A stretch of DNA of 64,000 bases from an uncultured Gammaproteobacteria bacterium. GTDB taxonomy: Bacteria; Pseudomonadota; Gammaproteobacteria; Steroidobacterales; Steroidobacteraceae. Positions 2,777 through 47,889 of this stretch are shown here, piece by piece. Made by a program: the position numbers and the translations under genes. The stretch is from NCBI GenBank assembly GCA_963837045.1, contig CAWIMA010000009.1, forward strand, positions 1,267-65,266. Reading direction: 5' to 3'. The notes beneath the pieces were generated by a model. The model was not told where the DNA came from, searched no databases, and saw nothing but the letters and a program-made list of their open reading frames with translations. How positions within the stretch are numbered: the first letter of the stretch is position 1; each line of letters starts with the position of its first letter.

Positions 2777-3016
2777 TCAGCTCCGAGTGCTTCGACGCTT
2801 AGTGCCGCCACGCCCCACCGGATTCTCCTCACCGGGAGTCCAAGGGCGCCCGAGGCGCGTCTCGATATATCCACGAATCATGCGTCGTACCACCTGTGAA
2901 GGGGTGAGGTCCTCCTGAGCACATAGCCGTTCGAACACTGCTTTCTTGCGCGGATCGATCAGGGTCGTAAGCCGCGCTGTGCGCTCTTCGAGATGAACAA
3001 CCTTGGGGAATTTCAT
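2777..3016 (-). CDS. Ribbon-helix-helix (CopG/MetJ-like) transcriptional regulator, copy 1
   Basis: 79 aa: RLTTLIDPRKKAVFERLCAQEDLTPSQVVRRMIRGYIE gives a beta-strand plus two helices, with a basic tail. Divergent from Ehr cluster 1. Close paralog at 13211..13441. Confidence 0.8.
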   Translation of the reverse strand: MKFPKVVHLEERTARLTTLIDPRKKAVFERLCAQEDLTPSQVVRRMIRGYIETRLGRPWTPGEENPVGRGGTKRRSTRS

Positions 3017-3205: not shown

Positions 3206-5236
3206 ATGTCGCTCGCGAGCCCTGCGTGCTTGAGTCAATTAGCCGCCGGCGGCATTGCACTATTGCTCGTCCTCGCGGCGTGCGGAATCCTCGCTGCACG
3301 CCGTCCGCTTGGAGTGCGGCTGACCTACGCCGCTTGCATGCTAATCTCGTCCGGGCTCGCAGGCGTGGCGCTCATCGCGCTGCTCGCACCGCATTCTCGG
3401 CTCGAATCCATCGAAATTCCGCTCGGACTGCCGCTAAGTCGAACGCTTCTGGGCTTCGATCCACTGAGCGCCGCGTTCGCCGTCATCATCAACTTGGCGA
3501 CCGCAATCGTCAGCGGGTACGCCATCGGCTATGGCGCGCATGCCCACGAGCCGCAGCGGGTCGTGCCGTTTTACCCGGCGTTCATCGCCGGCATGAATCT
3601 AGTGCTGCTCGCCCAAGATGCGTTTTCATTTCTCATCGGCTGGGAATTCATGTCACTCGCCTCTTGGGCGCTCGTGGTCAGCGACCACCATTCCAGTGAA
3701 AACCGACGCGCTGCGCTCCTCTATCTCATCATGGCGACGGGGGGAGCTCTGACGCTGCTGCTGGCGTTCGGGTTGCTCGCTGGCCCCGAAGGCGGATACG
3801 CGTTCGAGACGATCCGACGCTCGAGCGCTTCGGGCGTGGGGGCGATCGTTCTCGTCCTCGCGCTGGTGGGGGCCGGCTCCAAAGCAGGTCTCGTGCCGCT
3901 ACATGCCTGGCTGCCGCTCGCGCACCCGGCCGCGCCGAGTCACGTTTCGGCATTGATGAGTGGGGTCATGACGAAAGTGGCAGTCTACGGCTTTGTGCGG
4001 CTGGTCTTCGACCTCGCGGGGCCTCCCGCGTGGTGGTGGAGCGTTCCGGTGCTGGTCATTGCCGGCATCACGGCACTCCTGGGTGTTCTGTATGCGTTGA
4101 TGGAACACGATTTGAAGCGCCTGCTCGCGTACCACACGGTCGAGAACATCGGCATCATCTTTATCGGTCTGGGACTTGCGCTCGCGTTCGAGGCGACGGG
4201 ACTGCGCGTGGCGGCGGCCCTTGCACTCACGGCAGCAATTTTCCACGTGTTCAATCATTCCCTATTCAAGAGTCTGCTGTTCATGGGTTCCGGCGCGGTA
4301 CTGAATGCCACCGGTGAGCGGGATATGGAACACCTCGGAGGCTTGATTCACCGCATGCCGGTCACCGCACTGGCGTTCCTCGCCGGATGCATCGCCATCT
4401 CCGCGCTGCCACCCTTCAACGGGTTCGTCTCCGAGTGGCTCACGTTTCAGGCCATTCTTGTCAGTCCGCAACTGCCGCAGTGGGTTCCGCGACTCCTGGT
4501 GCCGGCCATCGGTGCAATGCTTGCGTGCTCGGCGGCCCTCGCGGCGGCGTGCTTCGTCAAAGCCTTCGGGATGACGTTTCTGGGCCGGCCACGCTCTGAT
4601 GCTGCAACGAGCGCGCGCGAGACGGATTATTGGTCGCTAAGCGCCATGCTCGCGCTGGCGGCGCTGTGTCTGCTCGCGGGGATTCTGCCGGGCTTCGTGA
4701 TCGACGCGCTAGACCCCCTGACACAGATGCTTGTCGGTGCACGGCTCGCGCCGCAGGCCACACAGCCCTGGTTGCGGATTGTGCCCATCGACCCGTCACG
4801 CAGTGCATACAACGGCGCCCTCGTTTTCGTCATGATCTTGATCGCAGCAGCCGCCACGGCGTTTGCGGTGCGCCGGTTTGCCTCGCATACGCTTCGACGC
4901 TCTCCAGCGTGGGACTGCGGCTTCCCGGACGCGAGCCCCGCGACCCAATATACGGCCGGGAGCTTCGCACAGCCCATCCGGCGTGTGTTTGGAAGCGTCG
5001 TGTTTCGCGCACGGGAGCATGTCGTGATGCCGGCGCCCGGGGATACGTCCGTGGCCAGACTGCGCGTCGATTTGCACGATACGATCTGGGAAGCGCTCTA
5101 TCTACCCGTGATTCGTGCGGTCAACGCAATCGCCGATCGCCTGAACCAGGTGCAGTTCCTCACGATTCGAACCTATCTGACGCTCGTGTTCGCGGCACTG
5201 GTCCTGCTGCTGATTGTCGTCGGAGCGTGGCGATGA
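3206..5236 (+). CDS. Ehr cluster 1: HyfB/NuoL-like antiporter-type membrane subunit
   Basis: Polytopic protein with NuoL/HyfB blocks (WEFMSLASWALV, GSKAGLVPLHAWLPLAHPAAPSHVSALMSGVMTKVA, RLLAYHTVENIGII). Start chosen at ATG 3206 (MSLASPA...); ATG 3143 or GTG 3089 are also possible. Confidence 0.9.
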   Translation: MSLASPACLSQLAAGGIALLLVLAACGILAARRPLGVRLTYAACMLISSGLAGVALIALLAPHSRLESIEIPLGLPLSRTLLGFDPLSAAFAVIINLATAIVSGYAIGYGAHAHEPQRVVPFYPAFIAGMNLVLLAQDAFSFLIGWEFMSLASWALVVSDHHSSENRRAALLYLIMATGGALTLLLAFGLLAGPEGGYAFETIRRSSASGVGAIVLVLALVGAGSKAGLVPLHAWLPLAHPAAPSHVSALMSGVMTKVAVYGFVRLVFDLAGPPAWWWSVPVLVIAGITALLGVLYALMEHDLKRLLAYHTVENIGIIFIGLGLALAFEATGLRVAAALALTAAIFHVFNHSLFKSLLFMGSGAVLNATGERDMEHLGGLIHRMPVTALAFLAGCIAISALPPFNGFVSEWLTFQAILVSPQLPQWVPRLLVPAIGAMLACSAALAAACFVKAFGMTFLGRPRSDAATSARETDYWSLSAMLALAALCLLAGILPGFVIDALDPLTQMLVGARLAPQATQPWLRIVPIDPSRSAYNGALVFVMILIAAAATAFAVRRFASHTLRRSPAWDCGFPDASPATQYTAGSFAQPIRRVFGSVVFRAREHVVMPAPGDTSVARLRVDLHDTIWEALYLPVIRAVNAIADRLNQVQFLTIRTYLTLVFAALVLLLIVVGAWR

Positions 5237-6186
5237 TGCTCACCTGGCTCACACAGCTAGCGCAGGCCGCCCTCGTGCTCACTCTCGCGCCGCTCTTGTC
5301 CGGTGTGACGCGCAAGATCAGAGCGCGCCTCCTGCGCCGACAGGGTCCGTCCATCGTTCAGCCATATCGGGATCTCGCAAAACTGATCCGCAAAGAGGCC
5401 GTCGTCGCCGAGAATGCATCATGGCTGTTTCGTGTCGCCCCCTATGTGGTATTTGCGACGACGTGGGTCGCCGCCGCGTTGGTCCCCACATTTGCAACGG
5501 GGCTTACGTTGAGTGCGTCCGCAGATCTCATCGTGATCGTCGCCCTGCTCGGCACCGCTCGTTTCCTGCTCGCGCTCGCGGGACTGGATGTCGGCACGAG
5601 TTTTGGCGGAATCGGCTCGAGCCGCGAAATGATGTTCGCCTCGCTCGCGGAGCCGGCCATGCTGATGGCGGTTTTCACGCTCTCGCTATTTGCAGGCTCG
5701 ACCGAGCTCTCCTCCATCTCAGCCTACATGCTGGGGCCTAATGCCGGTCTCAGCATCTCACTCGCACTCGCATTCGTGGCGCTCGTCATCGTTTCGCTCG
5801 GAGAAAACGCCCGCATTCCCGTCGACAACCCGGCGACGCATCTCGAGCTGACCATGGTGCACGAGGCCATGATTCTCGAATACTCCGGCCGGCACCTCGC
5901 GGTGATCGAATTCGCTGCCTCGCTGAAGCTTTTGCTGTACCTGTCGTTGATCGCGTGTGTGTTCATCCCGTGGGGAACAACGCTTGCCGGCGATGGCGCC
6001 CTTGCCTACACCATCGCGCTCGGCGCCTATGCGACCAAGCTGACGGTGTTGGCATTCTTTCTGGTTCTCTTCGAGACCGCCATCGCCAAGATGCGCGTGT
6101 TTCGTGTACCAGATTTCCTTGGCGTAGCGCTCATGCTGGGGCTCCTCGGCACCATTATGTTGTTCGTATCCCGGGTGCGCGGATGA
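5233..6186 (+). CDS. Ehr cluster 1: HyfC/HycD/NuoH-like membrane subunit
   Basis: MMLTWLTQLAQAAL...RKIRARLLRRQGPSIVQPYRDLAKL.. and ENARIPVDNPATHLELTMVHEAMILEYSG are NuoH/HycD signatures. ATGA overlap with the upstream stop. The track ORF 4630..6186 was trimmed. Confidence 0.9.
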   Translation: MMLTWLTQLAQAALVLTLAPLLSGVTRKIRARLLRRQGPSIVQPYRDLAKLIRKEAVVAENASWLFRVAPYVVFATTWVAAALVPTFATGLTLSASADLIVIVALLGTARFLLALAGLDVGTSFGGIGSSREMMFASLAEPAMLMAVFTLSLFAGSTELSSISAYMLGPNAGLSISLALAFVALVIVSLGENARIPVDNPATHLELTMVHEAMILEYSGRHLAVIEFAASLKLLLYLSLIACVFIPWGTTLAGDGALAYTIALGAYATKLTVLAFFLVLFETAIAKMRVFRVPDFLGVALMLGLLGTIMLFVSRVRG

Positions 6187-6845
6187 CTACTCTCGACAGC
6201 GATATTGCCCATCTGCTCGCGGGTTCCCTGGTGCTCGTGAGCTTCCTGCTGCTGTATCAGGATCGCATGTTCGCATTACTCAATGTCTTTGCACTCCATG
6301 CGATCGTCCTGGCGCTATCCGTCGCCTGGCAGGCGCATATGCAACACGCGCCGCATCTCTTTATTACGGCGCTGATTGCCTTGCTGTTCAAAGGCGTGAT
6401 GATCCCGGCCGCGCTGCATCGAATCGTCGTACGGCTGCGAATTCACCGCACCATCGAAACCGTAGTGAGCATTGGCCCTACGATGCTATTCGGGATGGGT
6501 CTCGTTGCGCTTTCGGTCGTTGTCATGCTGCCGCTGACACAAGCCGCCGGCGCGTTTGTGAGGGAGGACCTCGCCTTCGCACTGTCAGTCCTGCTCCTCG
6601 GATTCTTGATGATGGTTACGCGCCGCAATGCCGTGAGCCAAGTCATCGGATTCATGTCGCTTGAGAATGGTCTCGTGCTCGCCGCGACCGGCGCCCGCGG
6701 CATGCCATTGGTTGTGGAGATCAGCGTCGGATTCTCCGTGCTCATCGCCTTCCTCGTCATCGGCATTTTCCTGTTCCGAATCCGGGAACGATTCGACACG
6801 GTCGAACTGCAGGCGCTCGACATGTCGCGGGGCGAATCGGAGTGA
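6183..6845 (+). CDS. Ehr cluster 1: HyfE/HycP-like small membrane subunit
   Basis: 220 aa, multi-TM, with the VIGFMSLENGLVLAA motif typical of HyfE-type subunits. ATGA overlap with the upstream gene. Confidence 0.8.
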   Translation: MTTLDSDIAHLLAGSLVLVSFLLLYQDRMFALLNVFALHAIVLALSVAWQAHMQHAPHLFITALIALLFKGVMIPAALHRIVVRLRIHRTIETVVSIGPTMLFGMGLVALSVVVMLPLTQAAGAFVREDLAFALSVLLLGFLMMVTRRNAVSQVIGFMSLENGLVLAATGARGMPLVVEISVGFSVLIAFLVIGIFLFRIRERFDTVELQALDMSRGESE

Positions 6846-8293
6846 CCGTGTCCGTCGGAACGCTGGCGCTCGCAGGACTCCTCGGCACCCCTGCGATTGG
6901 CGCGGTCTTGCTTGCGGCTATTCCGACCTACCGGGTCGCGGCCGTCCTCAACATGATTCTGTGCGCGATTACGCTCGCAAGCGCGGCGCTTCTGTACTCG
7001 CACCGCCCGGAGCCCTCGCTTTATTTGCTCGTCGATGACCTCAATACGGTTTTCCTCATCATCGGTACGCTGGTAGGCTTCACCACGAGCCTGTTCAGTG
7101 CAGGCTACATCGCGCACGAGCTGCAATCGCGCAAGCTCAGATCGCGGGATCTGCGCTTCTATCACGCCCTGTACCAGTTCCTCATGTTCGCGATGGATCT
7201 CGCGCTGGTGTCGAACAACATCGGGCTCATGTGGGTGGCGATCGAGCTCGCGACACTCACGACGGTCGTGATGGTGGGCATCTACCGCACCAACGCGGCG
7301 CTCGAAGCATCATGGAAATATTTCATCCTGGGCTCGGTCGGCATTGGCCTCGCGCTGTTTGGCACGATCTTGGTCTACCTCGCCGCTCAGGAACGTCTGG
7401 GCGAGGGCATGCTGGCCATGGCCTGGGACCGACTCGCGGCCCACTCAGCGGGCTTTGATCCGGCGCTGCTCAACCTGTCGTTTATATTTCTGTTGCTCGG
7501 CTACGGCACCAAGGTCGGCCTTGTGCCGGTGCATGCCTGGCTGCCGGATGCCCACGCGGAGGGCCCGACGCCGATCTCTGCCGTGCTGTCGGGCTTGTTA
7601 CTCAATGTGGCGCTGTTCGCGCTGTTGCGATTCAGGCTGATCATGGCGGGAAACCCGGCGGTCCTCTCCCCCGGCCCGATGATGGTCACGATGGGCGCAC
7701 TCTCGCTGGTCTTCGCGGGCTTCATGATCTACCGCAGGCGTGACATCAAGCGCATGTTTGCATACTCCTCGATCGAGCACATGGGGATCATCACCTTAGC
7801 ATTCGGACTCGGAGGACCACTCGCAAATTTCGCCGGGCTCCTACACATGGCCATGCACAGCCTCACGAAATCGGCCATCTTCTTTGGCGTGGGATACATC
7901 TCCCAGCTGGAGGGGACGCAGCGCATCGCGGACATCCGGGGGCTGACGCAGAGCGAGCCGCTCCTCGGATGGTTGCTGGTCGTCGGGGCCGTCGCGATTG
8001 CGGGGCTCCCACCCTTCGGGATCTTCACGAGTGAGTTTCTGCTTATAACCTCGACCTTTGCCCGCTCGCCATGGCTCGCCATTCTGTTGGTTCTAGGCCT
8101 CATGATTGCCTTCAGCGCGCTCGCACTGCGCCTGCACGGCCTCGCTTTCGGAGAGACGGCCAAGCGCCATGCGCTGCCAGCCTGGCGTCTCGCACCCATG
8201 GCCCTGCACTTGGGCTTGGTCGCAATCGCCGGCATCTATCTGCCGGTGGCCGTTGTCGCATGGTTTCGTCACGTGGCCACACAGCTCGGGTAG
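6842..8293 (+). CDS. Ehr cluster 1: HyfF/HycQ/NuoN-like antiporter-type membrane subunit
   Basis: 483 aa: GYGTKVGLVPVHAWLPDAHAEGPTPISAVLSG, MFAYSSIEHMGII. GTG start overlapping the upstream stop. Confidence 0.9.
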   Translation: MTVSVGTLALAGLLGTPAIGAVLLAAIPTYRVAAVLNMILCAITLASAALLYSHRPEPSLYLLVDDLNTVFLIIGTLVGFTTSLFSAGYIAHELQSRKLRSRDLRFYHALYQFLMFAMDLALVSNNIGLMWVAIELATLTTVVMVGIYRTNAALEASWKYFILGSVGIGLALFGTILVYLAAQERLGEGMLAMAWDRLAAHSAGFDPALLNLSFIFLLLGYGTKVGLVPVHAWLPDAHAEGPTPISAVLSGLLLNVALFALLRFRLIMAGNPAVLSPGPMMVTMGALSLVFAGFMIYRRRDIKRMFAYSSIEHMGIITLAFGLGGPLANFAGLLHMAMHSLTKSAIFFGVGYISQLEGTQRIADIRGLTQSEPLLGWLLVVGAVAIAGLPPFGIFTSEFLLITSTFARSPWLAILLVLGLMIAFSALALRLHGLAFGETAKRHALPAWRLAPMALHLGLVAIAGIYLPVAVVAWFRHVATQLG

Positions 8294-8301
8294 GCGCTCT
8301 A

Positions 8302-9813
8302 ATGCTCAAAGCCCTATTCGGAGATCTCTCAGCCGCGCCAACCCACCACCCGTGGCCGCGTGTCACAGCGGATTCAGAGCGGTGGCGCGGCATCGGTGAG
8401 GCGCTGCGCGAAGGCAAGCTCGACTTGCTCGGCCTCTGGGCTGATTTGGCTTACGTGCATTGCGCCCTGTACGAGCCCGCGACTCGCAACGTAGTGAGCG
8501 CATCGATCAAGGTCAGCGCGGGCAGGGTCCCGTCGCTCGCAGTCTTTCATGCGCCCGCATCTCGCTTGGAGCGGGCGATCGGCGATTTGTTCGGCGTCGA
8601 ATTTGTCGGACTGCCCGATCCACGGCCGTGGATCGATCACGGATGCTGGCCTATCCATACGCCATTGGCTGAACTGCCGGGGCCGGGAGCGCCGTTGCCG
8701 CCCTACCGGTTTCTCGGGGCGCAAGGTCCGAGCCTGCATCAGATTCCGGTCGGTCCGGTGCATGCCGGGATCATCGAACCCGGTCATTTCCGCTTCACGG
8801 CGAGCGGCGAAACCGTTGTCCGACTCGAAGAGCGCCTCGGCTATACCCACAAGGGCATCGACAAACTGCTCGAGGACCAATCGATTGACCAAGCTGCACG
8901 AGTTGCGGCACGCGTGTCGGGGGACAGTACCGTGGCGTATTCGTTTGCCTTCGCTCGCGCCGTGGAGGCCGCTCTCGAAGTTAACCCGCCGCCGCGCGCG
9001 GTGTGGCTACGGGCGGTGATGGCCGAGCTCGAGCGAATCGCGAATCACTTAGGAGACGTCGGCGCCATTTGCAACGACGCTGCGTTCTCGATGATGCACG
9101 CGGAGTGCGCAATCCTGCGCGAAGTGGTATTGCGCGCCTGTGCCGTCGCGTTCGGCCATCGTCTGATGATGGACCGCATTGTCCCGGGCGGCGTCGCCGC
9201 GGATCTTGAACCTGCCGGACAGGAGGCAATCCTCGGCATGACGCGGCGGGTGCGGCGGCAATTCCCCGAGCTGATCGAACTCTACGACAACACGGCCTCA
9301 CTTCAGGACCGTACAGTCGGCACCGGTGTCGTGTCCACAGCGCTCGCTGCACAGTTTGCTGCGCCCGGATACGTCGGGCGCGCGTCCGGACGCGCATTTG
9401 ATGCCCGACTCGCCCTGCCCTACGCCCCGTATGACGCAGCGCCGATCGAAATCGCCGTGCGGACGGAAGGCGACGTCGATGCGCGCGTCTGGGTAAGGAT
9501 TCAGGAGATCCTAAAGAGCATCAGTTGGCTCGAGGCGGCGCTCGCCTCCATTCCACCCGGCCCTTTGCGTTTGCCGGTCAACACTGCGGCCGGTACAAGC
9601 GTCGAGGGCTCGGCTCTGGTCGAAGGGTTTCGGGGAGACATTCTTGGGTACGTGCGCATCGGCCCGAGAGGGCGCATCGATCGCTGCCACTTACGCGATC
9701 CGTCATGGTTTCTGTGGCCGCTCTTGGAAGCTGCCATCGAGGGCAACATCGTTGCGGACTTTCCGTTGTGCAACAAGTCATTCAATTGCTCCTATTCCGG
9801 GCATGATTTGTAG
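8302..9813 (+). CDS. Ehr cluster 1: fused NuoC-NuoD / HycE-like 'large subunit' lacking the NiFe cysteine ligands
   Basis: NuoC-like N-domain (RLERAIGDLFGVEFVGLPDPRPW) plus NuoD/HycE core (VGPVHAGIIEPGHFRF, ERLGYTHKGIDKLLE). RVSGDS (8911-8928) sits where RxCGxC is expected. The C-terminus is PLCNKSFNCSYSGHDL instead of DPCxxC. Confidence 0.9.
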   Translation: MLKALFGDLSAAPTHHPWPRVTADSERWRGIGEALREGKLDLLGLWADLAYVHCALYEPATRNVVSASIKVSAGRVPSLAVFHAPASRLERAIGDLFGVEFVGLPDPRPWIDHGCWPIHTPLAELPGPGAPLPPYRFLGAQGPSLHQIPVGPVHAGIIEPGHFRFTASGETVVRLEERLGYTHKGIDKLLEDQSIDQAARVAARVSGDSTVAYSFAFARAVEAALEVNPPPRAVWLRAVMAELERIANHLGDVGAICNDAAFSMMHAECAILREVVLRACAVAFGHRLMMDRIVPGGVAADLEPAGQEAILGMTRRVRRQFPELIELYDNTASLQDRTVGTGVVSTALAAQFAAPGYVGRASGRAFDARLALPYAPYDAAPIEIAVRTEGDVDARVWVRIQEILKSISWLEAALASIPPGPLRLPVNTAAGTSVEGSALVEGFRGDILGYVRIGPRGRIDRCHLRDPSWFLWPLLEAAIEGNIVADFPLCNKSFNCSYSGHDL

Positions 9814-9839: not shown

Positions 9840-10379
9840 ATGCGCAGGCGCCTGTTCAAAAACCTCTTCACCACCCCATGTACCGAGCCCGTGACCGAGG
9901 GGGCAGCGCCGCTGGAGCTCGCGGGCGCGCAGCTTCGAGGCGTGATCGCGCGAAGCCTCGGTCGCAGTCTCGCGATCCGCGAGGTCGATGCGGGTTCCTG
10001 CAACGGCTGCGAGCTTGAAATTCACGCGCTCAGCAATGCCTTTTACGATGTCGAGCGCTTCGGAATCCGCTTCGTGGCCTCCCCGCGCCATGCCGATCTG
10101 CTGCTCGTGACCGGCCCTGTCACGCTCAACATGCGCGAGGCCCTGGAGCGCACCTATGCGGCAACGCCGGCGCCCAAGTGGGTGGTGGCGGTCGGAGACT
10201 GTGGTGCCGGCTGTGGGCTGTTCGCAGACAGCTATGCGTGCGTCGGCGCAGTCTCGAAAGTGATTCCAGTCGACCTCGTGATTCGCGGCTGCCCGCCCAC
10301 CCCTACGGACCTGCTACAGGGATTGCTCGAACTCCTCAACGGCGGCGCCGCGCTCAGCGTGAACACCCAGCACTCCTGA
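9840..10379 (+). CDS. Ehr cluster 1: NuoB/HycG-like small subunit with [4Fe-4S] ligands
   Basis: 179 aa: DAGSCNGCELEI, FVASPRHADLLLVTGPV, VAVGDCG, RGCPP. All four N2-type cluster cysteines are present. Confidence 0.9.
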   Translation: MRRRLFKNLFTTPCTEPVTEGAAPLELAGAQLRGVIARSLGRSLAIREVDAGSCNGCELEIHALSNAFYDVERFGIRFVASPRHADLLLVTGPVTLNMREALERTYAATPAPKWVVAVGDCGAGCGLFADSYACVGAVSKVIPVDLVIRGCPPTPTDLLQGLLELLNGGAALSVNTQHS

Positions 10380-10419: not shown

Positions 10420-12204
10420 TCAATATTTTCGTGCCATAGGCGGAATCGTCTGCACATCGGCCGAGAGTGTTGCGAGATGAACCGGTCGATAGTCGAGCCG
10501 CACCGCGCCATGGCCATCCACCCACGCGAGGCTGTGTTTGAGCCAGGCCGCATCGTCACGGTTTGGAAAATCCTCGCGCGCGTGCGCGCCGCGACTCTCC
10601 TTTCGAGCGAGCGCCGAATGCATCGTGGCGATGGCTTGAAGTAGGAGATTTTCGAATTCCAGCGTCTCGATGAGATCGCTGTTCCAGATGAGTGAACGGT
10701 CTTGGACGCGGATATCCGGCAATAACTGCATCGTTCGGAAGAGCCTCGCCGCCCCTTCCGTGAGGGTGGAGGCCGTCCGGAACACGGCGGCATCGGACTG
10801 CATGATCTTCTGCATCTGCAGTCGCAGCTCCGCCGTCGGCCGCGTACCGCTGGCGTGACGCAAGCGATCGAGCCTCGAGATAGCAAGCTCTCCGGCATCT
10901 TTGGACAGCGGCGGCTGCGCCGCACCGGGCCGGATCGAGGCGACACACTGGCGCGCGGCCTCACGGCCGAAGACCACGATGTCAAGGAGCGAGTTGGACC
11001 CCAAGCGATTTGCGCCATGCACGGAGACGCAAGCCGCTTCACCCACTGCCATGAGTCCCGGCACGACCGCATCCGGATTGCCGTCCTTGGGGGCGATGAC
11101 CTCCCCGTGATAGTTGCAGGGGATGCCGCCCATATTGTAGTGCGCGGTGGGCAACACCGGAATCGGTTCGCGCGCGACATCGACTCCGGCAAAAATCCGC
11201 GAGGACTCGGCTATACCGGGCAGGCGCTCACGAATCACCTGCGGCCCGAGATGTTCGAGATGCAGATGCATGTGATCCTTCTGCGGGCCGACACCGCGCC
11301 CCTCGCGAATCTCAATCGTCATCGCACGGCTGACGACATCGCGCGAGGCCAAGTCCTTCGCATTCGGCGCGTAACGTTCCATGAACCGTTCACCGCTTGC
11401 ATTGGTCAGAAACCCGCCCTCGCCGCGCACGCCTTCGGTGATCAGGCATCCGGCGCCGTAGATGCCGGTGGGATGAAACTGTACGAACTCCATGTCCTGC
11501 AACGGCAAGCCTGCACGCAGTACCATGCCGCCACCGTCACCGGTGCATGTGTGCGCCGAGGTGCACGAGAAATAGGTCCGTCCGTAGCCGCCGGTCGCGA
11601 GGATTGTCGTGTGCGCACGGAAGCGGTGGAGCCGGCCTTCGGTCATGTCGAGCGCCACCACGCCGCGGCACGCGCCGTTTTCCATGATGAGATCGATCGC
11701 GAAGTACTCGACAAAGAAGATCGCACGATGTTGGATTGCCTGCTGATACAGGGTGTGCAGCATGGCATGGCCGGTGCGGTCGGCCGCGGCACATGTGCGC
11801 TGCGCCACCCCCTTGCCGAAGTGCGTGGTCATGCCACCGAAGGGACGCTGATAGATGCGTCCATCCTCCGTGCGGGAGAACGGCACGCCGTAGTGTTCGA
11901 GCTCGATGACCGCGCTCGGAGCCTCCTTGCACATGAACTCGATGGCATCCTGATCGCCGAGCCAGTCGGAGCCCTTGATCGTGTCGTAGAAATGAAAGCG
12001 CCAGTCATCCTCCCCCATGTTACCGAGAGCTGCGCTGATCCCGCCCTGTGCCGCGACGGTGTGGCTGCGCGTCGGAAATACTTTGCTGAGACAGGCGGTC
12101 GCGAGGCCTGCTTCCGCAAGCCCAAGCGTGGCGCGCAGGCCCGCTCCCCCCGCCCCTACGACAATTACGTCGTACGTGTGATCGGCTATCGGATAGGCGC
12201 TCAT
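10420..12204 (-). CDS. sdhA: Succinate dehydrogenase flavoprotein subunit
   Basis: 594 aa, full length: [32 protein letters not shown] (covalent-FAD His), ...PPMARKY end. No sdhB follows; the next gene is 40 bp away and convergent. Confidence 0.95.
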
Positions 12205-12625
12205 GCCAAAGCTCCGAACGCTACTTCCAAGACGGCGAACACGGCCGCCGCGGCCACGAGCACATGTACAAAGCCCAGCAGGAGCAGTAAGCCGATCCGC
12301 GCGAGAGGGTCATGCAGGTAGTCTTCCACCACCACGCGAAGCCCCAAATAGGAGTGTTGCGCGACGGCGAGGATGAGCACAACGAGCGGCACCGCATTCC
12401 AGCCACGACTCATCCACTCCCGCACCATCGCGTAATTGATCGATGAGAATCGACAACAAAGACACGACAAACCACACCCCGGGCAATCGCCGTAATCCAA
12501 TAGGCGAGCAGGAGAAAGCCGCCGGATAGGATGATTCCGCTCGCCCGATGCAGGATCGATAGCGTGTTCGTGTACTGCCACCGGTAGTGAAGATACGGTG
12601 ATAGCGGTCTTGAGGGTCCAAGCAT
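12201..12625 (-). pseudogene. sdhC 5' stump joined out of frame to sdhD 3' part (deleted membrane-anchor genes)
   Basis: 12476-12625 encodes MLGPSRPLSPYLHYRWQYTNTLSILHRASGIILSGGFLLLAYWITAIARG (SdhC N-terminus). 12201-12428, in another frame, encodes ..[46 protein letters not shown] (SdhD C-terminus). Together they span about 140 codons, where two genes of about 125 codons each are expected. Confidence 0.65.
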
Positions 12626-12631
12626 GTGACT

Positions 12632-13198
12632 TCACTCCTTAAACAGGCTGCGAGTAGCGAGCCTAAATCGGAATTCCGCTGATCCCGACGAGCGCAGCAC
12701 AAAGAGAGCCGCTTTGCCTTCGATTAAGGGTAGCCCCGCGCGTGGCCCGATGTTTCCGAGTCGCAGAATGGCCGACCCATCGGTCACGATCGCCACCGCC
12801 CGACCGAGGTAGGTGAAATCGAACACCTTCTCCGGGGCCGCACGGATCGCCAGACACACGCGCGCTACCCCCGGGGTATAGATGTCGCGCAGAATCTGCT
12901 GTGTAGAGATCGCAACGCGCGAGCGCATCTCGATTTTGCCGCCGCGGTGATGATCGAAGGCGCGATCCGACCACCCAATGAAGCGCGCCGTCGGCAGCGC
13001 GTTTAACCGATCGACGAGCCCCGCATGCGCCGCGGTGTCGATCTCAACGGTGATCTCCCACAGGGTGCGGTCCTGGTCGCGCCGCACGCTACTCACGTGT
13101 TCGAGAACGAGTCCGGCCTCTGCGATCACATTGAGCACGCTCGCCAGAGCGCCCGGGGAATGCGGCGTCTCGACCTTCAGAATCTCGGGAATCTTCAC
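12632..13198 (-). pseudogene. 3'-truncated ACT-domain malic enzyme gene
   Basis: ACT-like N-terminus followed by the malic-enzyme N-domain: DIYTPGVARVCLAI, VAIVTDGSAILRLGNIGPRAGLPLIEGKAALF. Similarity stops there, the ORF ends about 20 codons later, and the NAD-binding half is missing. Confidence 0.7.
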
Positions 13199-13210: not shown

Positions 13211-13441
13211 TCACGCGCGTCCGCCACGCCGTACCCCGCCCCGGACCGCCGGCTTCGACGCTTGGTCGGGGGGTGTCCAGGGCTGCCCGGTCCGCTCCTC
13301 GATATAGCGGCGAATCAAGCGCCGCACCACCTGGGAGGGGGTGGCGTCCTCTTCCGCACACAAGCGTTCGAACAACGCCTTTTTGCGCGGATCGACGAGG
13401 ATCGTCAGTCGTGCGGTCCGATCTTCGAGTGCCACGGCCAT
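13211..13441 (-). CDS. Ribbon-helix-helix (CopG-like) transcriptional regulator, copy 2
   Basis: 76 aa: RLTILVDPRKKALFERLCAEEDATPSQVVRRLIRRYIE. About four-fifths identical by eye to copy 1 over the 52-aa core. Divergent from Ehr cluster 2. Confidence 0.8.
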   Translation of the reverse strand: MAVALEDRTARLTILVDPRKKALFERLCAEEDATPSQVVRRLIRRYIEERTGQPWTPPDQASKPAVRGGVRRGGRA

Positions 13442-13512: not shown

Positions 13513-15516
13513 ATGCCACTTATCCATTCATCGCTCAGCGCGTGCCTCGTGCTGATCGCTCTCTGGGGCCTCCTCGGCCTCGCCGGACTTCTGCGCCCCA
13601 TGAGCGTGGGTTTTGTGGGGCGGACGCTCTTTCCGCTGGGGGCCCTGTGTGGCGCGGCCCTTGCGATCGTGGCGGCCGTGAGCCTCGCGGCACCTGCCGA
13701 GCAGCTGACGCTTACCGTCGGACTGCCCGACCTGCCGATGCACATGCGGCGCGATGCGCTGACGAGCCTCTTTCTTCTTTTGCTCGGGGCCGCTTCGGCG
13801 GGCATCTCGGTCTTCGCTGCGGGGTACTTTCGACGTGGTCACGGCACCGCGCCCGGCCTGTTATGCCTGCAATACCATGTATTCCTGGCCAGCATGGGTT
13901 TGGTGCTGCTGGCCAATGATGCCTACGCGTTCATGGTGGCGTGGGAAACGATGGCGCTCTCGTCCTACTTTCTGGTCACCACGCAACACGGTCTCGCGGA
14001 GATCCGTCGCGCGGGCTTTCTCTATCTGCTGATCGCGCACGTCGGGGCGATCGCAATCCTGTTGAGCTTCGGCGTGATGCAGGGTGGCAGTTGGCAGTTC
14101 ACCTTCGATGCCATGCGCGGCGCGCACCTTGCGCCACAATGGGCGGCGACCGCCTTCCTGCTCGCACTCTTCGGCTTCGGGGCGAAAGCCGGGCTCGTGC
14201 CCCTGCACGTGTGGCTACCTGAGGCGCACCCGGCCGCCCCCTCGCCCGTTTCGGCGCTCATGAGCGGTGTGATGCTGAAAACCGCCGTCTACGGCGTGCT
14301 GCGCGTGACCTTCGATCTGCTGGGGCATGCCCAATGGTGGTGGGGCCTCGTGCCGCTCGCCTTCGGGCTTTTCAGCGCGCTGTACGGAGTGGTATTCGCC
14401 GCGGCCCAAACCGACATGAAACGACTGCTCGCGTACTCTTCGATCGAGAACATGGGCATCATCTTCACCGGCTTCGGGCTTGCGATCGTATTCCTCGGCG
14501 TCGGCATGCCCTCCCTCGGAGCGCTCGCCCTGATCGCGCTGCTGTATCACAGCCTCAATCACGCGTTCATGAAGAGCTTGCTGTTTCTCGGTACCGGGGC
14601 GGTTTTGCATTCGACCGGTGAACGCAACCTCGGGCGCCTGGGCGGACTGATCCATCGGATGCCGTGGGTCGCGTGGCTGACCCTCATCGGTGCGCTCGCC
14701 ATGGCCGGGCTCCCGCCACTGAACGGTTTCGTCTCCGAGTGGCTCCTTCTACAGTCGTTTCTCTTTTCGAACGAAGTGCCCCGGCCTTTCATCAACATGC
14801 TGCTTCCCTTGGGCGCGGCGCTTATCGCACTCGCCGCCGCGCTCGCCGCCTATGTCATGGTCAAGTTCTTTGGAGTCATCTTCCTGGGCCAGCCGCGCGA
14901 GGAGAGCTTGAACCGCGCGCACGATGCGGGCGTGCTCGAGCGCATCGGCCTTATCTGGCTCGCGCTCGGCTGCTTCGCATTGGGCCTCCTGCCGACGCAT
15001 GTGATCGGCGCGCTGCGCAGCGTGGTCGAGCAATTGAGTGGCGCCGAACTGCCGAGCGCGCACGCTCCCTGGTGGCTCCTCGTACCGTTGCCGGAACGGC
15101 GCGCCTCCTATTCCCCGCTCGTCTTCTTCCTTGCGATCGCCGCAGTCGTCGTGGTCACGATGTTCGCCGTGCGGCTCTTCTATCACCGTCGGGTGCGTCG
15201 CGCGCCGCCGTGGGATTGCGGATTCGGAGGCTTAAATTCGCGGATGCAGGACAGCGCGGAAGGCTTCGGTCAGCCGATTCGCCACATTTTCGGGTCTTTC
15301 TTTGCGATGAAGCGCGAACTGCCCTCCCCGTTTGATCACGCACCGCGCTACCGTGTCACGGCAGGGGACCGGATCTGGCTGGCGCTGTACCTGCCGCTTG
15401 GCACCCTCGTGCGGCGCGTGGCGGATACCGTCGTGTGGTTGCAGCAGGGGCGCATCTCCACCTACCTGCTCTACAGTTTCGTGACCCTCGTTGTGTTGCT
15501 GGCGCTCGTCGTATGA
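13513..15516 (+). CDS. Ehr cluster 2: HyfB/NuoL-like membrane subunit
   Basis: MPLIHSSLSACLVLIAL...; WETMALSSYFLV, GAKAGLVPLHVWLPEAHPAAPSPVSALMSGVMLKTA, RLLAYSSIENMGII. Track ORF 13273..15516 trimmed to ATG 13513. Confidence 0.9.
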   Translation: MPLIHSSLSACLVLIALWGLLGLAGLLRPMSVGFVGRTLFPLGALCGAALAIVAAVSLAAPAEQLTLTVGLPDLPMHMRRDALTSLFLLLLGAASAGISVFAAGYFRRGHGTAPGLLCLQYHVFLASMGLVLLANDAYAFMVAWETMALSSYFLVTTQHGLAEIRRAGFLYLLIAHVGAIAILLSFGVMQGGSWQFTFDAMRGAHLAPQWAATAFLLALFGFGAKAGLVPLHVWLPEAHPAAPSPVSALMSGVMLKTAVYGVLRVTFDLLGHAQWWWGLVPLAFGLFSALYGVVFAAAQTDMKRLLAYSSIENMGIIFTGFGLAIVFLGVGMPSLGALALIALLYHSLNHAFMKSLLFLGTGAVLHSTGERNLGRLGGLIHRMPWVAWLTLIGALAMAGLPPLNGFVSEWLLLQSFLFSNEVPRPFINMLLPLGAALIALAAALAAYVMVKFFGVIFLGQPREESLNRAHDAGVLERIGLIWLALGCFALGLLPTHVIGALRSVVEQLSGAELPSAHAPWWLLVPLPERRASYSPLVFFLAIAAVVVVTMFAVRLFYHRRVRRAPPWDCGFGGLNSRMQDSAEGFGQPIRHIFGSFFAMKRELPSPFDHAPRYRVTAGDRIWLALYLPLGTLVRRVADTVVWLQQGRISTYLLYSFVTLVVLLALVV

Positions 15517-16463
15517 AGCCAATCGAGATTATCACCCAGGTGCTCGAGCTGATCGCGGCGCTCGCCGCGGCGCCACTCTTTCTCGGCTGGATCAACCAGT
15601 GTCGCGCGCAACTGCAAAACCGTCGCCCACCGAGCCTGTGGCTGCCCTACCGAGGCATTCGCAAACTCTTTCATAAGGATGCCGTGATCGCCGAACGCGC
15701 ATCCCCCCTGTTTCGCGTGGCGCCCTACATCGTGTTCAGCGCGATGGTCCTCGCCGCCGCGATCATTCCCTCGATGGGCACGGAGCTGCCATTCACCAAG
15801 GCGGCGGATGCAATCGCGCTCGTGGGGCTGCTCGCCACGGCACGAGTCTTTTTATCGCTCGCAGCGATGGACATCGGCACCGCCTTCGGCACGCTCGGAG
15901 CGCGCCGCGAGATGATGGTGGGATTCCTCGCCGAGCCCGCCCTGCTGATGGTTATCTTCGTCGCCTCCCTCATTTCGGCAACCACCGCGCTGCCCGCCAT
16001 CACCGAGAATCTGGCTACGCAGCATCTGGGGATCTATCCGAGTCTCGCCTTCACGGCGGTCGCCTTCACGATGGTGTTGCTCGCCGAAAATGCGCGCATT
16101 CCCATCGACAATCCGGCGACGCATCTCGAACTCACGATGATTCATGAGGCCATGATGCTCGAGTACTCGGCACGCCACCTTGCGCTCATGGAGTGGGCGG
16201 CCGCTCTCAAGCTCTTCAACTACGCGTGCATCGGGTTTGCGCTCTTTATCCCATGGGGAGTCTCGACCGGCGAGGGCGGTCCTCTCGCACTTCTCGCCTC
16301 GATTCCGCTGCTCGCCCTGAAGCTTGCGGTGGCCGGAGTCGCCCTCGCCCTGATCGAGACGCTCTCGGCGAAGCTGCGGGTGTTTCGTGCACCGGAGTTT
16401 CTCGCCGTTGCGTTCCTATTTGCGGTGCTGGGCCTGCTCGTGCACCTGCTATTGGCAGCTTAG
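15513..16463 (+). CDS. Ehr cluster 2: HyfC/HycD/NuoH-like membrane subunit
   Basis: ENARIPIDNPATHLELTMIHEAMMLEYSARH. ATGA overlap with the upstream gene. Same length class as copy 1. Confidence 0.9.
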   Translation: MKPIEIITQVLELIAALAAAPLFLGWINQCRAQLQNRRPPSLWLPYRGIRKLFHKDAVIAERASPLFRVAPYIVFSAMVLAAAIIPSMGTELPFTKAADAIALVGLLATARVFLSLAAMDIGTAFGTLGARREMMVGFLAEPALLMVIFVASLISATTALPAITENLATQHLGIYPSLAFTAVAFTMVLLAENARIPIDNPATHLELTMIHEAMMLEYSARHLALMEWAAALKLFNYACIGFALFIPWGVSTGEGGPLALLASIPLLALKLAVAGVALALIETLSAKLRVFRAPEFLAVAFLFAVLGLLVHLLLAA

Positions 16464-16468: not shown

Positions 16469-17173
16469 ATGGCCGGCGTCCCCTTCGATCTGCAACTGCT
16501 GAACCTCTGTGCGGCGCTGCTCCTGTTGCTTTCCTTTGCGATGCTCGCGCAGCGGCGCATCGTGAACCTGGTGAACCTCCTCGCCGTACAGGGCACGGTG
16601 CTCCTGGTCGCCACACTTCTGCTCGCGTGGCGCACCGGCCAGCATCATCTTTATGTGTCTGCGGCGCTCACCCTCGCGCTCAAGGTGGTACTGCTGCCCT
16701 GGATTTTGCACCGGCTCATTCGCCGCCTGCAGGTCTATTGGGATACCGAGCCGCTGCTCAACATCCCGGGCACCATGCTCGTGGGCGTCCTGGTCGTCGT
16801 GTTCGCCTTTGGCCTGGCGCAGCCGATCTCAGCGCTAGCCAGTACCGCGACGCGCAACTCGATCGGCATCGCGGTCGCTGTGGTGCTGCTGTCATTCGTC
16901 ACAATGATCACGCGGCGCAAGGCGATGTCGCAGGTGGTTGGATTTCTCTCGATGGAGAACGGGCTTTTTTTTGGGGCCATGAGCGCCACCTACGGCATGC
17001 CGATGATCGTCGAGTTCGGGGTGGCGCTCGATGTCCTAGTCGCCGTGCTGGTACTCGGCATTTTCTTCTTCCAGATCCGCGAGCAGTTCGACAGTCTGGA
17101 TCTGCATCATCTCGAGTCGCTCAAAGAGAGCCATTCACTCGAGGAAACTCAGTCCCTCGAGGAGGATGATTAA
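16469..17173 (+). CDS. Ehr cluster 2: HyfE/HycP-like small membrane subunit with acidic tail
   Basis: VVGFLSMENGLFFGAM motif. An extra C-terminal HHLESLKESHSLEETQSLEEDD is absent from copy 1. Confidence 0.8.
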   Translation: MAGVPFDLQLLNLCAALLLLLSFAMLAQRRIVNLVNLLAVQGTVLLVATLLLAWRTGQHHLYVSAALTLALKVVLLPWILHRLIRRLQVYWDTEPLLNIPGTMLVGVLVVVFAFGLAQPISALASTATRNSIGIAVAVVLLSFVTMITRRKAMSQVVGFLSMENGLFFGAMSATYGMPMIVEFGVALDVLVAVLVLGIFFFQIREQFDSLDLHHLESLKESHSLEETQSLEEDD

Positions 17174-18632
17174 CGTGGAGTTCCTGCTCCTGCTCGCAAG
17201 CCCCCTCGCCGGCGCACTCCTCCTGGGCGTCTTCGGCGCGCGGCGCTGGGCGCCTGAGCTCAATGTGGCCATGAGCCTCGCGACATTCCTCGCCGCTTGT
17301 GCGCTCACGGCACGCGTCGTGGGCGAAGGGAATCTCCTTGTAGCACGTGAGCAATTCTTCATCGATCCGTTCAACGTCTTTCTCGTCACACTCACCGCCT
17401 TTGTTGGACTCACGACGTCGTTGTTTTCGCGTCCCTACATGCGCGTGGAGCTCGAGCACGGGCGCGTGAGCGCGCCTCGGCTGCGTCTGTATCACAGCAT
17501 GTTTCAGCTCTTCATGACGACTATGTTAATTGCGCTCACGACCAACAACATGGGACTTCTGTGGGTCGCCATGGAAGCTGCAACGCTTTCCACCGTGCTG
17601 CTCGTCACGCTCTACCGGACGGCGGCGAGTCTCGAGGCCGGCTGGAAATATTTCATCCTCTGCGGCGTCGGTATTGCCCAGGCACTGTTCGGCACGATTC
17701 TGCTGTACTTCGCCGCCGAGAAGATTCTCGGTGCGCAAGGAGTGACTGCGCTCCTGTGGACGCACTTGAATGCGGTGAAGGGGCAGCTCGAGCCCGCCGT
17801 GTTGAGTCTCGCGTGGGTCTTTCTGCTCGTCGGCTACGGCACGAAGGTGGGCCTCGCGCCGCTCCACAACTGGCTCCCCGATGCGCATGCGGAAGGCCCC
17901 ACGCCGATCTCGGCCGTACTCTCGGGGCTGCTGCTCAATGTGGCCATCTACGCGATCGTGCGCTGCAAGGTGCTCGTCGAAGGTTCGCTGCACTCGCAAC
18001 TCCCCTCGCGAATGTTGATGGGTTTCGGTCTGCTCTCGGTCGTGCTCGCGGCGTTTTTTCTGTGGCGTCAGCGCGATGTCAAGCGGCTCTTCGCCTACTC
18101 CTCGATTGAACACATGGGGATCATCACCTTCGCCTTCGGCATGGGGGGGCCGGTCGCCAATTTCGCCGCGCTCCTGCATATGACGGTGCACTCGCTCACC
18201 AAGTCGGCGATCTTCTTTGCCGTCGGGCACGCCGCGCAGAAAGCCGGCTCGCAGCTGATAGAGAACATCCGGGGGCTCATCACCTTGAGCCCGACAATCG
18301 GTTGGGGCCTGATGCTGGGGTCGCTCGCGATCCTCGGTATGCCCCCCTTCGGCGTCTTTGCGAGCGAATTTCTGATCCTCACTACCGCGATGCGAGATCA
18401 GCCCTGGGCGACGCCCATTCTGCTCACCGCGCTCGGCGTCGCCTTCGCCGCCATCTTCGGACGCGTGCAGCCCATGGTATTCGGTGAAACGACGGCTCGG
18501 CGTTTACCGCACCCGCCGTCCCTGGTGCCGGTCTTTGCGCACCTCGCCATCGTGCTGGCGCTCGGCTTGTATATACCGCCCTATCTGGCGGACTGGTATC
18601 GCGCGGCGGCGCGCCTGATCGGGGGCGGCTGA
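17166..18632 (+). CDS. Ehr cluster 2: HyfF/HycQ/NuoN-like membrane subunit
   Basis: 488 aa: GYGTKVGLAPLHNWLPDAHAEGPTPISAVLSG, LFAYSSIEHMGII. Confidence 0.9.
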   Translation: MINVEFLLLLASPLAGALLLGVFGARRWAPELNVAMSLATFLAACALTARVVGEGNLLVAREQFFIDPFNVFLVTLTAFVGLTTSLFSRPYMRVELEHGRVSAPRLRLYHSMFQLFMTTMLIALTTNNMGLLWVAMEAATLSTVLLVTLYRTAASLEAGWKYFILCGVGIAQALFGTILLYFAAEKILGAQGVTALLWTHLNAVKGQLEPAVLSLAWVFLLVGYGTKVGLAPLHNWLPDAHAEGPTPISAVLSGLLLNVAIYAIVRCKVLVEGSLHSQLPSRMLMGFGLLSVVLAAFFLWRQRDVKRLFAYSSIEHMGIITFAFGMGGPVANFAALLHMTVHSLTKSAIFFAVGHAAQKAGSQLIENIRGLITLSPTIGWGLMLGSLAILGMPPFGVFASEFLILTTAMRDQPWATPILLTALGVAFAAIFGRVQPMVFGETTARRLPHPPSLVPVFAHLAIVLALGLYIPPYLADWYRAAARLIGGG

Positions 18633-24189: not shown

Positions 24190-24201
24190 TGAGGATACAT
24201 T

Positions 24202-24238
24202 AAGGTTATATCCATCATTATATGATGTTTGTAACCTT
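24202..24238. promoter_or_regulatory. Nested palindromes in the AT-rich AbiE promoter region
   Basis: AAGGTTA (24202-08) pairs with TAACCTT (24232-38), enclosing ATCAT-TAT-ATGAT (24214-26), directly upstream of the AbiEii start. AbiE modules are classically autoregulated at inverted repeats. Confidence 0.35.
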
Positions 24239-34070: not shown

Positions 34071-34090
34071 GCCTGCGGGAGTCGCAGTTG

Positions 34091-35497: not shown

Positions 35498-35531
35498 GTC
35501 CGAGACCTAGCATCATGAGCAGAGTCATCCC

Positions 35532-47887: not shown

Positions 47888-47889
47888 GG

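Follow-up and report, generated by a model that had tools for sequence, protein, structure and literature searches.

Two Ehr/Hyq-type operons in a Steroidobacteraceae genome carry a conserved Gly-Asp motif in place of the NiFe cysteines of group-4 hydrogenases

Results

Two six-gene operons at one locus

The window analysed here, a 64-kb stretch of contig CAWIMA010000009.1 from an uncultured member of the Steroidobacteraceae (Gammaproteobacteria), carries two genes, called copy 1 and copy 2 in the following, for large subunits that resemble those of group-4 membrane-bound [NiFe] hydrogenases and lack the cysteines of the metal centre. Each of them is the fifth of six co-directional and tightly packed genes, and the same six gene types occur in the same order in both operons. 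The genes of the two operons and the regulators that diverge from them are:

2777-3016, minus strand: RHH_9 regulator of 79 amino acids, divergent from operon 1 (Pfam RHH_9, E = 1.9e-22)
3206-5236, plus strand: EhrA1, HyqB-like, antiporter-like subunit of the NuoL/HyfB type with an in-frame ATG start (Proton_antipo_M, 3.4e-53; NCBIfam "hydrogenase 4 subunit B", 845 bits)
5233-6186, plus strand: EhrB1, HyqC-like, HycD/NuoH type, its ATG overlapping the upstream stop (Pfam NADHdh, 5.6e-40)
6183-6845, plus strand: EhrC1, HyqE-like small membrane subunit of the HyfE type (NCBIfam "hydrogenase 4 membrane subunit", 7e-20, below cut-off)
6842-8293, plus strand: EhrD1, HyqF-like, antiporter-like subunit of the NuoM/N/HyfF type (Proton_antipo_M, 4.2e-56; NCBIfam "hydrogenase 4 subunit F", 763 bits)
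8302-9813, plus strand: EhrL1, HyqG-type large subunit (copy 1), a NuoC-NuoD fusion of 503 amino acids without the NiFe cysteines
9840-10379, plus strand: EhrS1, HyqI-like small subunit of the NuoB/HycG type with CxxC...C...C for one [4Fe-4S] cluster
13211-13441, minus strand: second RHH_9-type regulator, 76 amino acids, divergent from operon 2 (the gene at the same place in a close relative is called RHH_9)
13513-15516, plus strand: EhrA2, antiporter-like subunit, 667 amino acids (Pfam Proton_antipo_M; the gene model matches that of a close relative)
15513-16463, plus strand: EhrB2, HycD-like, 316 amino acids (Pfam NADHdh; best PDB match HycD 7z0s_D, 4.7e-35)
16469-17173, plus strand: EhrC2, HyfE-like, 234 amino acids (NCBIfam, 4.1e-27)
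17166-18632, plus strand: EhrD2, antiporter-like subunit, 488 amino acids (Pfam; charged residues compared among 23 orthologs)
18634-20172, plus strand: EhrL2, large subunit (copy 2), 512 amino acids, of the beta/gammaproteobacterial type
20182-20721, plus strand: EhrS2, small subunit with four [4Fe-4S] cysteines, C53, C56, C120 and C150

All four features of the Ehr/Hyq family are found here, namely a large subunit that is a NuoC-NuoD fusion, the loss of both CxxC motifs, a small subunit with four cysteines and the six-gene operon. Judged by these features, both operons belong to this family of Cys-less relatives of the group-4 membrane-bound [NiFe] hydrogenases. The absence of both CxxC motifs in the family has been published (PMC3357923, PMC10284858, PMC6349859, PMC4758237), and a sequence-only reading made earlier of this DNA therefore erred in taking the site to be a new one. 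Ehr stands for "Ech-hydrogenase-related", and EhrA, EhrC, EhrL and EhrS have been named in Geobacter (PMC7894505). The Ehr complexes are described as group-4-like, without CxxC motifs and of undefined function (PMC10284858, PMC6349859, PMC12342949, PMC10432482); the Rv0081-87 locus of Mycobacterium tuberculosis, which is reported to be under the control of the transcriptional hub Rv0081, is counted as Ehr-type (PMC6728331). In Azorhizobium caulinodans the Hyq "endo-hydrogenase" is encoded by hyqRBCEFGI (AZC_4355-4360; PMC2650096, PMC3357923). Its large subunit HyqG, of 504 amino acids, lacks both CxxC motifs and has family-conserved cysteines at positions 258, 491 and 497, and HyqI provides four cysteines for an N2-type cluster (PMC3357923). 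A description of the invariant Gly-Asp reported below was not found in the literature searched, which excluded the paper that defined Ehr (Marreiros 2013).

The small subunits of both copies carry GSCNGCE...GDCG...GCPP, and the four [4Fe-4S] cysteines are kept in 97% of 39 orthologs. In EhrD2, Glu137 of transmembrane helix (TM) 5, Lys227 of TM7 and Glu401 of TM12 are invariant in 23 orthologs, as are other charged residues. The PDB matches of EhrB2 are HycD and then MbhM. There is no NuoI/HycF-like gene in the operons.

Both cysteine pairs of the large subunit are replaced

In group-4 hydrogenases the NiFe centre is held by the cysteines of two motifs, RxCGxCxxxH (L1) near the N-terminal side and [DE][PL]CxxCxx[HR] (L2) at the C-terminus. 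None of these four positions is Cys in either copy, and since all four ligands are gone, the canonical NiFe(CN)2CO centre cannot be held. The sites discussed in the following are:

8911-8928, plus strand: L1-equivalent R-V-S-G-D-S of copy 1 (translation, alignment, codon comparison)
19273-19290, plus strand: L1-equivalent R214-V-S-G-D218-S of copy 2 (translation, alignment, codon and clade conservation)
9769-9810, plus strand: L2-equivalent C-terminus of copy 1, CNKSFNCSYSGHDL, with Ser at the former Cys3, Gly at the former Cys4, and the C490/C496 pair
20128-20169, plus strand: L2-equivalent C-terminus of copy 2, INKSFNLSYSGHDL
9070-9078, plus strand: C257-N-D259 of copy 1; the Cys is kept in the Hyq subclade and the Asp falls in the column of Nqo4 Asp139
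19438-19440, plus strand: Asp269 of copy 2, in the column of Nqo4 Asp139
19990-19992, plus strand: Arg453 of copy 2 in EGWRG, invariant, pairing with the active-site Arg of the hydrogenase motif EAPRG

Translation confirmed the hexapeptide RVSGDS at the two L1 sites, where the sequence-only reading had placed it. The segments that begin with it encode RVSGDSTVAYSF in copy 1 (8911-8946) and RVSGDSAVAFSW in copy 2 (19273-19308). Both motifs are in frame inside long open reading frames (ORFs) that match Pfam Complex1_49kDa, that of copy 1 also matching Complex1_30kDa and, weakly, NiFeSe_Hases.

The same reading had held that the hexapeptide occupies the L1 position and differs from the R-x-D-Y solution of NuoD; alignment to known large subunits had been set beforehand as the test of its position. 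In phmmer searches against the PDB, "laaRVSGDSavafS" aligned without gaps to "lsdRVCGICgfaHS" of HycE (7z0s_E, E = 2.5e-48), to "RMCGICsfsH" of Pyrococcus furiosus MbhL and to "RMDYLHsfaH" of Thermus Nqo4 (R84-H89 by direct count), which bears out both statements. L2, on which the sequence-only reading was silent, is replaced as well: "sLDPCYSC" of HycE pairs with "sFNLSYSG", so that Cys3 becomes Ser and Cys4 becomes Gly, and the motif reads N[CL]SYSG in both copies. The EhrL C-terminus lies two residues past the L2 equivalent, at the column of HycE Arg537, where HycE is cleaved C-terminally in maturation. EhrL thus has no maturation extension.

The two large subunits are old paralogs of different type

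Copy 1 and copy 2 are 43% identical, and the codons of the hexapeptide (CGC GTG TCG GGG GAC AGT in copy 1, CGG GTA TCC GGG GAT TCC in copy 2) differ at five of six positions. Divergence to this extent, together with codon turnover under unchanged amino acids, argues for purifying selection and not for recent copying, and the two genes are old paralogs. The identity of the hexapeptide despite the divergence of its surroundings, on which the sequence-only reading had built, is therefore real. A crude, midpoint-rooted neighbour-joining tree, used only for the placement of the copies and the clustering of Cys-bearing sequences and not for ancestry, puts copies 1 and 2 in different subclades and groups the Cys-bearing sequences together.

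The copies are, moreover, not equivalent. Copy 1 has three cysteines near the former active site, C257, C490 and C496 (9070-9072, 9769-9771 and 9787-9789), within the motifs GAICND and CNKSFNCSYSG. These cysteines are kept in the alphaproteobacterial Hyq subclade; the second motif occurs in 13 of 93 C-termini. The corresponding columns of copy 2 hold Gly267, Ile499 and Leu505, and most of the clade likewise lacks the trio. Copy 1 is also closer to the alphaproteobacterial orthologs from Rhizobium and Azospirillum (56-60% identity, compared with 43-47% for copy 2). By these cysteines and this higher identity, copy 1 is Hyq-type, while copy 2 represents the beta/gammaproteobacterial type. The 503-amino-acid gene model of copy 1 was also called in a relative with 92% identity. 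An AlphaFold2 (AF2) model of copy 2 (mean predicted local distance difference test, pLDDT, 87.5; predicted template-modelling score, pTM, 0.91; pLDDT below 50 in the beta1-beta2 loop and at the C-terminus) has HycE (7z0s_E) as its best fold match, with a template-modelling score of 0.92.

Residues kept across the Cys-less clade

Searched exhaustively with a profile, 1.84 billion cluster representatives gave 961 clusters at E <= 1e-30. We aligned 81 full-length representatives, 65 without the Cys pair (a set at no more than 50% identity) and 16 Cys-bearing relatives, which have CGxC and [E/N]LC[Y/H]x[C/A/D], mostly ELCYxC. Residue numbers follow copy 2, and counts refer to the 65 Cys-less representatives. 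In L1, position 218, the "x" of CGxC, is Asp in 63, next to the nearly invariant Gly217. The former Cys1 (position 216) is Ser in 49, Ala in 11 and Cys in five, and the former Cys2 (position 219) is Ser in 29, Thr in 19, Glu in eight, Asn in six and Ala in two. In L2, the former Cys3 (position 506) is Ser in 59 and the former Cys4 (position 509) is Gly in 64. Outside the two motifs, position 269 is Asp in 59 Cys-less representatives, compared with Gly in 13 of the 16 Cys-bearing relatives.

Further elements show no variation in either group, namely the beta1-beta2 loop GPVHAGIIEPGHFRF, His and Gly in the HxGxE block, and the EGWRG Arg (EAPRG in HycE). The conserved residues of the beta1-beta2 loop are His164, Glu169 and His172, and the Glu position of HxGxE that serves proton transfer keeps an acidic residue, Glu or Asp.

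At the nucleotide level, the genome loci and the window together gave 70 instances of L1, every one of them with the Asp, which is encoded by GAC in 38 and GAT in 32, and the Ser positions are encoded by both the TCN and the AGY families. The exact peptide RVSGDS occurs in 47 of the 70. The hexapeptide is thus conserved beyond the two genes, and the clade-wide Gly-Asp with its synonymous codon turnover agrees with the earlier proposal of purifying selection rather than decay. RVSGDS as such does not define the clade, which had been the suggestion, because only Gly-Asp and the Ser and Gly of L2 hold, while the L1 Ser positions vary. The clade signature under selection is [S/A/C]-G-D-[S/T/E/N] in L1 and N-x-S-Y-[S/A]-G in L2, the two L1 serines being its least constrained members. 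The clade spans Proteobacteria, Acidobacteriota, Nitrospirota, Actinomycetota, Melainabacteria, Binatia and a Thermoplasmatota archaeon.

Distribution and gene neighbourhood

When one genome per species was scanned, relatives were found in at least 591 species, and the best 80 of these were used for the comparison of genome loci. They include Steroidobacteraceae, Burkholderiales, Gallionella, Thiobacillus, Acidithiobacillus, Rhodanobacter, Acidobacteriaceae, Nitrospirota, Rhizobium and Azospirillum, among others; closest to the window are metagenome-assembled genomes of Steroidobacteraceae with 95% identity. Cys-less representatives at a greater distance belong to Acidobacteriota, Candidatus Aquicultor (Actinomycetota), Thermodesulfovibrio, Melainabacteria, Deltaproteobacteria, Binatia and the Thermoplasmatota archaeon. 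Clustering of ORFs recovered the six-gene core in all 80 loci, and the distant members have it too. In the latter the regulator is of the ArsR type, and the small subunit carries a fused 2x[4Fe-4S] ferredoxin-like domain at its N-terminus (loci L081-L085), a domain that the proteobacterial branch of the window has lost or never had. One of these loci, the "SSDT" member L084, retains just one Cys of the first CxxC in its NuoB-like domain.

Homologs of the RHH_9 protein lie directly upstream of the operon in 17 gamma- and betaproteobacterial loci, while alphaproteobacterial loci have a different, co-directional small helix-turn-helix-like protein instead. Candidate partner genes were sought by all-versus-all clustering of the ORFs from the 80 loci and the first 30 kb of the window. 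The two largest clusters outside the operon were discarded as antisense ORF artefacts of GC-rich genes.

Two tandem spermidine-synthase-like genes follow directly 3' of operon 2 on the plus strand (20758-21624 and approximately 21640-22490; NCBIfam PRK04457-like, below cut-off). A homolog lies upstream or downstream of the Ehr operon in 12 of the 80 loci, which are unrelated, and this recurrence suggests a functional link of some kind. Between the two operons lies sdhA (10420-13198, minus strand; TIGR01816, 952 bits) without sdhB or sdhC, preceded by an sdhD-like fragment and a truncated ORF for an ACT/malic-enzyme N-terminus. In the 95%-identical relative, sdhA stands alone directly downstream of the RHH_9 gene (L086/L087). 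The arrangement is lineage-specific and looks rearranged, and a lone sdhA was rejected as a general electron-input partner, as it occurs only in the window and this relative.

Farther downstream, the stretches 32856-42298 and 47174-49690 hold genes for denitrification and the response to nitric oxide: nnrS, a narK-like transporter of the major facilitator superfamily, narGHJ(I), a TehA/SLAC1 channel, a two-domain multicopper (nirK-like) protein with cytochrome c and an Rrf2 (NsrR-like) regulator. This neighbourhood hints at a role of the Ehr operons in low-oxygen physiology. Just downstream of the Ehr region, an AbiEii-type nucleotidyltransferase toxin with its upstream partner ORF forms a type IV toxin-antitoxin pair (22745-24249, minus strand).

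Discussion

A rebuilt pocket in a probable redox-coupled pump

The reading that we favour, with moderate confidence, is that these complexes are non-metal, redox-coupled ion pumps built on a rebuilt NiFe pocket. As the [4Fe-4S] cysteines of the small subunit and the charged residues of the antiporter-like subunits are kept, the complex probably still is a redox-coupled ion translocator. The ferredoxin-like domain that is fused to the small subunit in distant Cys-less members and in a Cys-bearing sister also speaks for redox competence. The EhrS cluster would carry electrons to or from a substrate that binds where the NiFe centre used to sit, at the interface of EhrL, EhrS and EhrB, and the complex could also run in reverse, driven by proton-motive force. 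For the substrates, we propose in the first place that a membrane quinone is paired with a low-potential cytoplasmic couple.

In the [NiFe] hydrogenase of D. fructosovorans, Val74 lies between Cys72 and Cys75, and residue 476 is the Arg of the APRG motif. Gas access is narrowed at the active site by bottlenecks that Val74 makes with Leu122 and with residue 476 (PMC11134402). Since Asp218 is the "x" of CGxC and hence the equivalent of Val74, it should line the former NiFe pocket beside the invariant Arg453. Together with Arg453 and Asp269, it may form a proton- and charge-handling group that couples the chemistry to the membrane arm, with none of these residues acting as a metal ligand. A contact of this pocket with a quinone or another substrate is possible.

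Several observations weigh against such a pump. No recurring electron-input module, dehydrogenase, ferredoxin or other partner gene was found beside the operon in the 80 genomes, and the small subunits of the window lack the ferredoxin-like domain of the distant members. The proximity of Asp218 and Arg453 is deduced from homology. In the membrane arm, a central lysine in TM8 is a feature of the antiporter subunits of complex I and Mrp, and this residue of EhrD is Asn (Asn258) in all 23 orthologs. The TM5-6 loop is central to coupling in complex I; in EhrB2 this loop has changed from PFDLAEAEQELQEG in HycD to PIDNPATHLELTMIHEA, with two acidic residues lost and an insertion of three residues. 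Moreover, EhrB2 had no match to NuoH of complex I at E <= 1e-5 in the PDB search and is HycD-like instead. The quinone-ligand columns of complex I are not kept either, Tyr87 being replaced by Gly217 and His38 by Ile168. Some lineages with Ehr lack quinone synthesis (PMC6349859), and the in vivo data from A. caulinodans argue that Hyq turns over H2 (PMC3357923), which would need a catalytic centre that a non-metal pump does not provide.

These last data are the basis of a rival reading, an unorthodox hydrogenase, which is an H2:quinone oxidoreductase that would activate or evolve H2 at a non-canonical centre of the large subunit; in copy 1 this centre could use C257, C490, C496 and Asp208, the residue in the column of copy 2 Asp218. 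When hyqRBCEFGI is deleted in A. caulinodans, diazotrophic growth is slower, and a hupSL mutant, whose microaerobic H2 evolution is very high, loses about 80% of it; the H2 output persists in a nifK mutant (PMC2650096, PMC3357923). The agreement of the copy 1 cysteines with those of HyqG, the 56-60% identity to alphaproteobacterial orthologs, and the retention of the active-site Arg and of an acidic residue at the proton-transfer position of HxGxE are in keeping with this view. We nevertheless regard it as unlikely. The phenotypes come from in vivo mutants of one organism and could be indirect effects; the Cys trio is missing from copy 2 and from most of the clade; and the Asp, Ser and Gly that are kept clade-wide are unable to hold a centre of NiFe or Fe. 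No hyp maturation genes or endopeptidase gene were found among the scanned ORFs of the 64-kb window, which has no nif genes and whose neighbourhood is one of denitrification. Furthermore, H2 does not induce the expression of Ehr in N. moscoviensis (PMC12342949), and M. tuberculosis, with its Ehr-type locus, has no NiFe maturation genes (PMC6728331).

A wider version of this idea, rather less probable in our view, is a new catalytic centre that would let a minimal six-subunit, complex-I-like pump act on H2, or on some other small molecule, with no NiFe cofactor. The putative centre would comprise the Gly-Asp opposite the active-site Arg, Asp269 and, in copy 1, the three cysteines, and the Azorhizobium in vivo data give a hint of it. 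If a new H2 centre of this kind existed, it would stand for an oxygen-compatible and maturation-independent hydrogenase chemistry that is widespread in aerobic soil bacteria and occurs in relatives of M. tuberculosis.

There is also a small chance that the complex is a redox-independent transporter, an Mrp-like cation/proton antiporter whose EhrL/EhrS head serves as a structural or regulatory cap, with an Asp218-Arg453 pair that fills and stabilises the empty pocket. An Asp beside a conserved Arg has the look of a cavity-filling salt bridge, the antiporter-like subunits are the best-conserved parts, and both the lack of an input module or partner gene in the 80 loci and the single cluster of the window EhrS, without a ferredoxin-like domain, would be expected of such a transporter. 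It is at odds with the four [4Fe-4S] cysteines kept in nearly all orthologs and with the ferredoxin-like Fe-S domains fused to the small subunit in other branches, and the conservation of His164, Glu169, His172, Asp269 and Arg453 in the head is hard to explain for a cap.

A new mononuclear metal site with Ser and Asp side chains as ligands in place of NiFe, to which the sequence-only reading had pointed, is improbable. It is true that Asp218 and Ser506 hardly vary and that each is a former ligand position or the neighbour of one, and the second L1 position is sometimes Glu or Asn. The former Cys4, however, is almost always Gly, the former Cys1 is Ala in 11 of 65 and the former Cys2 is any of S/T/E/N/A. 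With three of the four former ligand positions variable, a set of Ser/Asp metal ligands is unlikely: at most one carboxylate and one hydroxyl are constant, too few for a stable site, Ser is a poor ligand and the neighbouring Arg453 would repel a cation. Decay of pseudo-hydrogenase genes, with random loss of ligands after loss of function, could account for four missing cysteines and the lack of hyp genes nearby, and is refuted by the invariant replacement residues with their synonymous codon turnover and contradicted by intact ORFs in two paralogs and at least 591 species with all six subunits conserved, which leaves it a negligible probability.

Implications

The window therefore does not hold a new kind of enzyme; it holds a paralog pair in the known Ehr/Hyq family. 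What our analysis adds is a residue-level definition of the set under selection, namely Gly-Asp, the Ser and Gly of L2, Asp269 and Arg453. Moreover, a Hyq-type copy with the Cys trio and a copy free of it stand side by side in one genome and form a natural comparison pair. The family occurs in hundreds of species, including soil Proteobacteria, Acidobacteriota, nitrifiers, iron and sulfur oxidisers, Melainabacteria and archaea as well as, according to the literature, M. tuberculosis. Its function has been debated since 2005, with one group claiming H2 turnover without NiFe ligands and others assuming non-hydrogenases.

The membrane subunits at 3206-5236 and 6842-8293 and their homologs pass the curated NCBIfam cut-offs for "hydrogenase 4 subunit B" and "hydrogenase 4 subunit F", and public sources call the large subunit "Ni,Fe-hydrogenase III large subunit". 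With labels above cut-off, automated annotation reports a hydrogenase where no NiFe site can exist, and such annotation can inflate the H2 metabolism inferred from metagenomes.

Comparison with known systems

Complex I shares with EhrL the homologous fold of NuoD/Nqo4, the loss of the NiFe cysteines and the Arg of E-x-P-R/K-G. Asp269 of copy 2 and Asp259 of copy 1 fall in the column of Thermus Nqo4 Asp139, the partner of His38. As a trait specific to complex I, this Asp is weakened because MbhL also has Asp in the column, where HycE has Phe. Unlike complex I, the Ehr operons have no NuoI, NuoE, NuoF or NuoG subunits, and their small subunit has the hydrogenase-type C-N-G-C and not the tandem-Cys motif by which N2 is ligated in NuoB (PMC4758237).

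HycE of the Escherichia coli formate hydrogenlyase (PDB 7Z0S) is the best match in both sequence and fold (E = 2.5e-48; template-modelling score 0.92; 29% identity). It too is a NuoC-NuoD fusion, with a beta1-beta2 loop GPxH...EPGHFR, the HxGxE block and the EAPRG-type Arg; the small subunit of formate hydrogenlyase is likewise of the CxxC type, and EhrB is closest to HycD. HycE differs in having C241, C244, C531 and C534 and a C-terminal extension that is cleaved, whereas EhrL has S/S/S/G and stops at the end of mature HycE. The Ehr operons also lack HycF (NuoI-like), HycB and a formate dehydrogenase partner.

The window shares with the Hyq system of A. caulinodans the six structural genes in the order B, C, E, F, G, I with a small regulator beforehand, a NuoC-NuoD fusion of nearly the same length (504 amino acids in HyqG, 503 in copy 1) and one [4Fe-4S] motif CxxC...C...C as in HyqI. 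Cys 257, 490 and 496 of copy 1 correspond to the reported 258, 491 and 497, a match made by published positions. The window differs in that the regulators are RHH_9-type and divergent, with no hyqR-type first gene at either operon, which in the Hyq type goes with NifA/sigma-54 control within the nif regulon, in the denitrification genes nearby instead of a nif context, and in copy 2, which lacks the Cys trio and falls in the beta/gammaproteobacterial branch. The Ehr loci of G. sulfurreducens (GSU0739-45), Nitrospira, Melainabacteria, ammonia-oxidising archaea and M. tuberculosis (Rv0082-87) likewise have a group-4-like large subunit without CxxC, and NuoL-like, HyfE-like, large and small subunits have been named (PMC7894505); the Melainabacteria representative P0206 has the same x-x-D-x / NLSYSG signature. 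Other branches differ by their ArsR-type regulator and the ferredoxin-like domain on the small subunit.

The Cys-bearing sisters, probably the "group 4f" named in PMC10284858, keep CG[VA]C and ELCY[SA]C...DR; at the Asp269 position of the Cys-less clade, their residue is Gly. At 35-40% identity, the Planctomycetota representatives P0187 and P0301 otherwise show the identical six-gene core with its sizes (674, 312, 221, 491, 530 and 263 amino acids) and the C-terminal DFPLxNKSF block common to both groups, and a Cys-bearing Planctomycetota relative (L088) combines the same core with the same ferredoxin-like fusion. This shared core and fusion indicate that the Cys-less clade is either sister to or derived from a real hydrogenase of six subunits, with a rebuilding of the catalytic pocket only.

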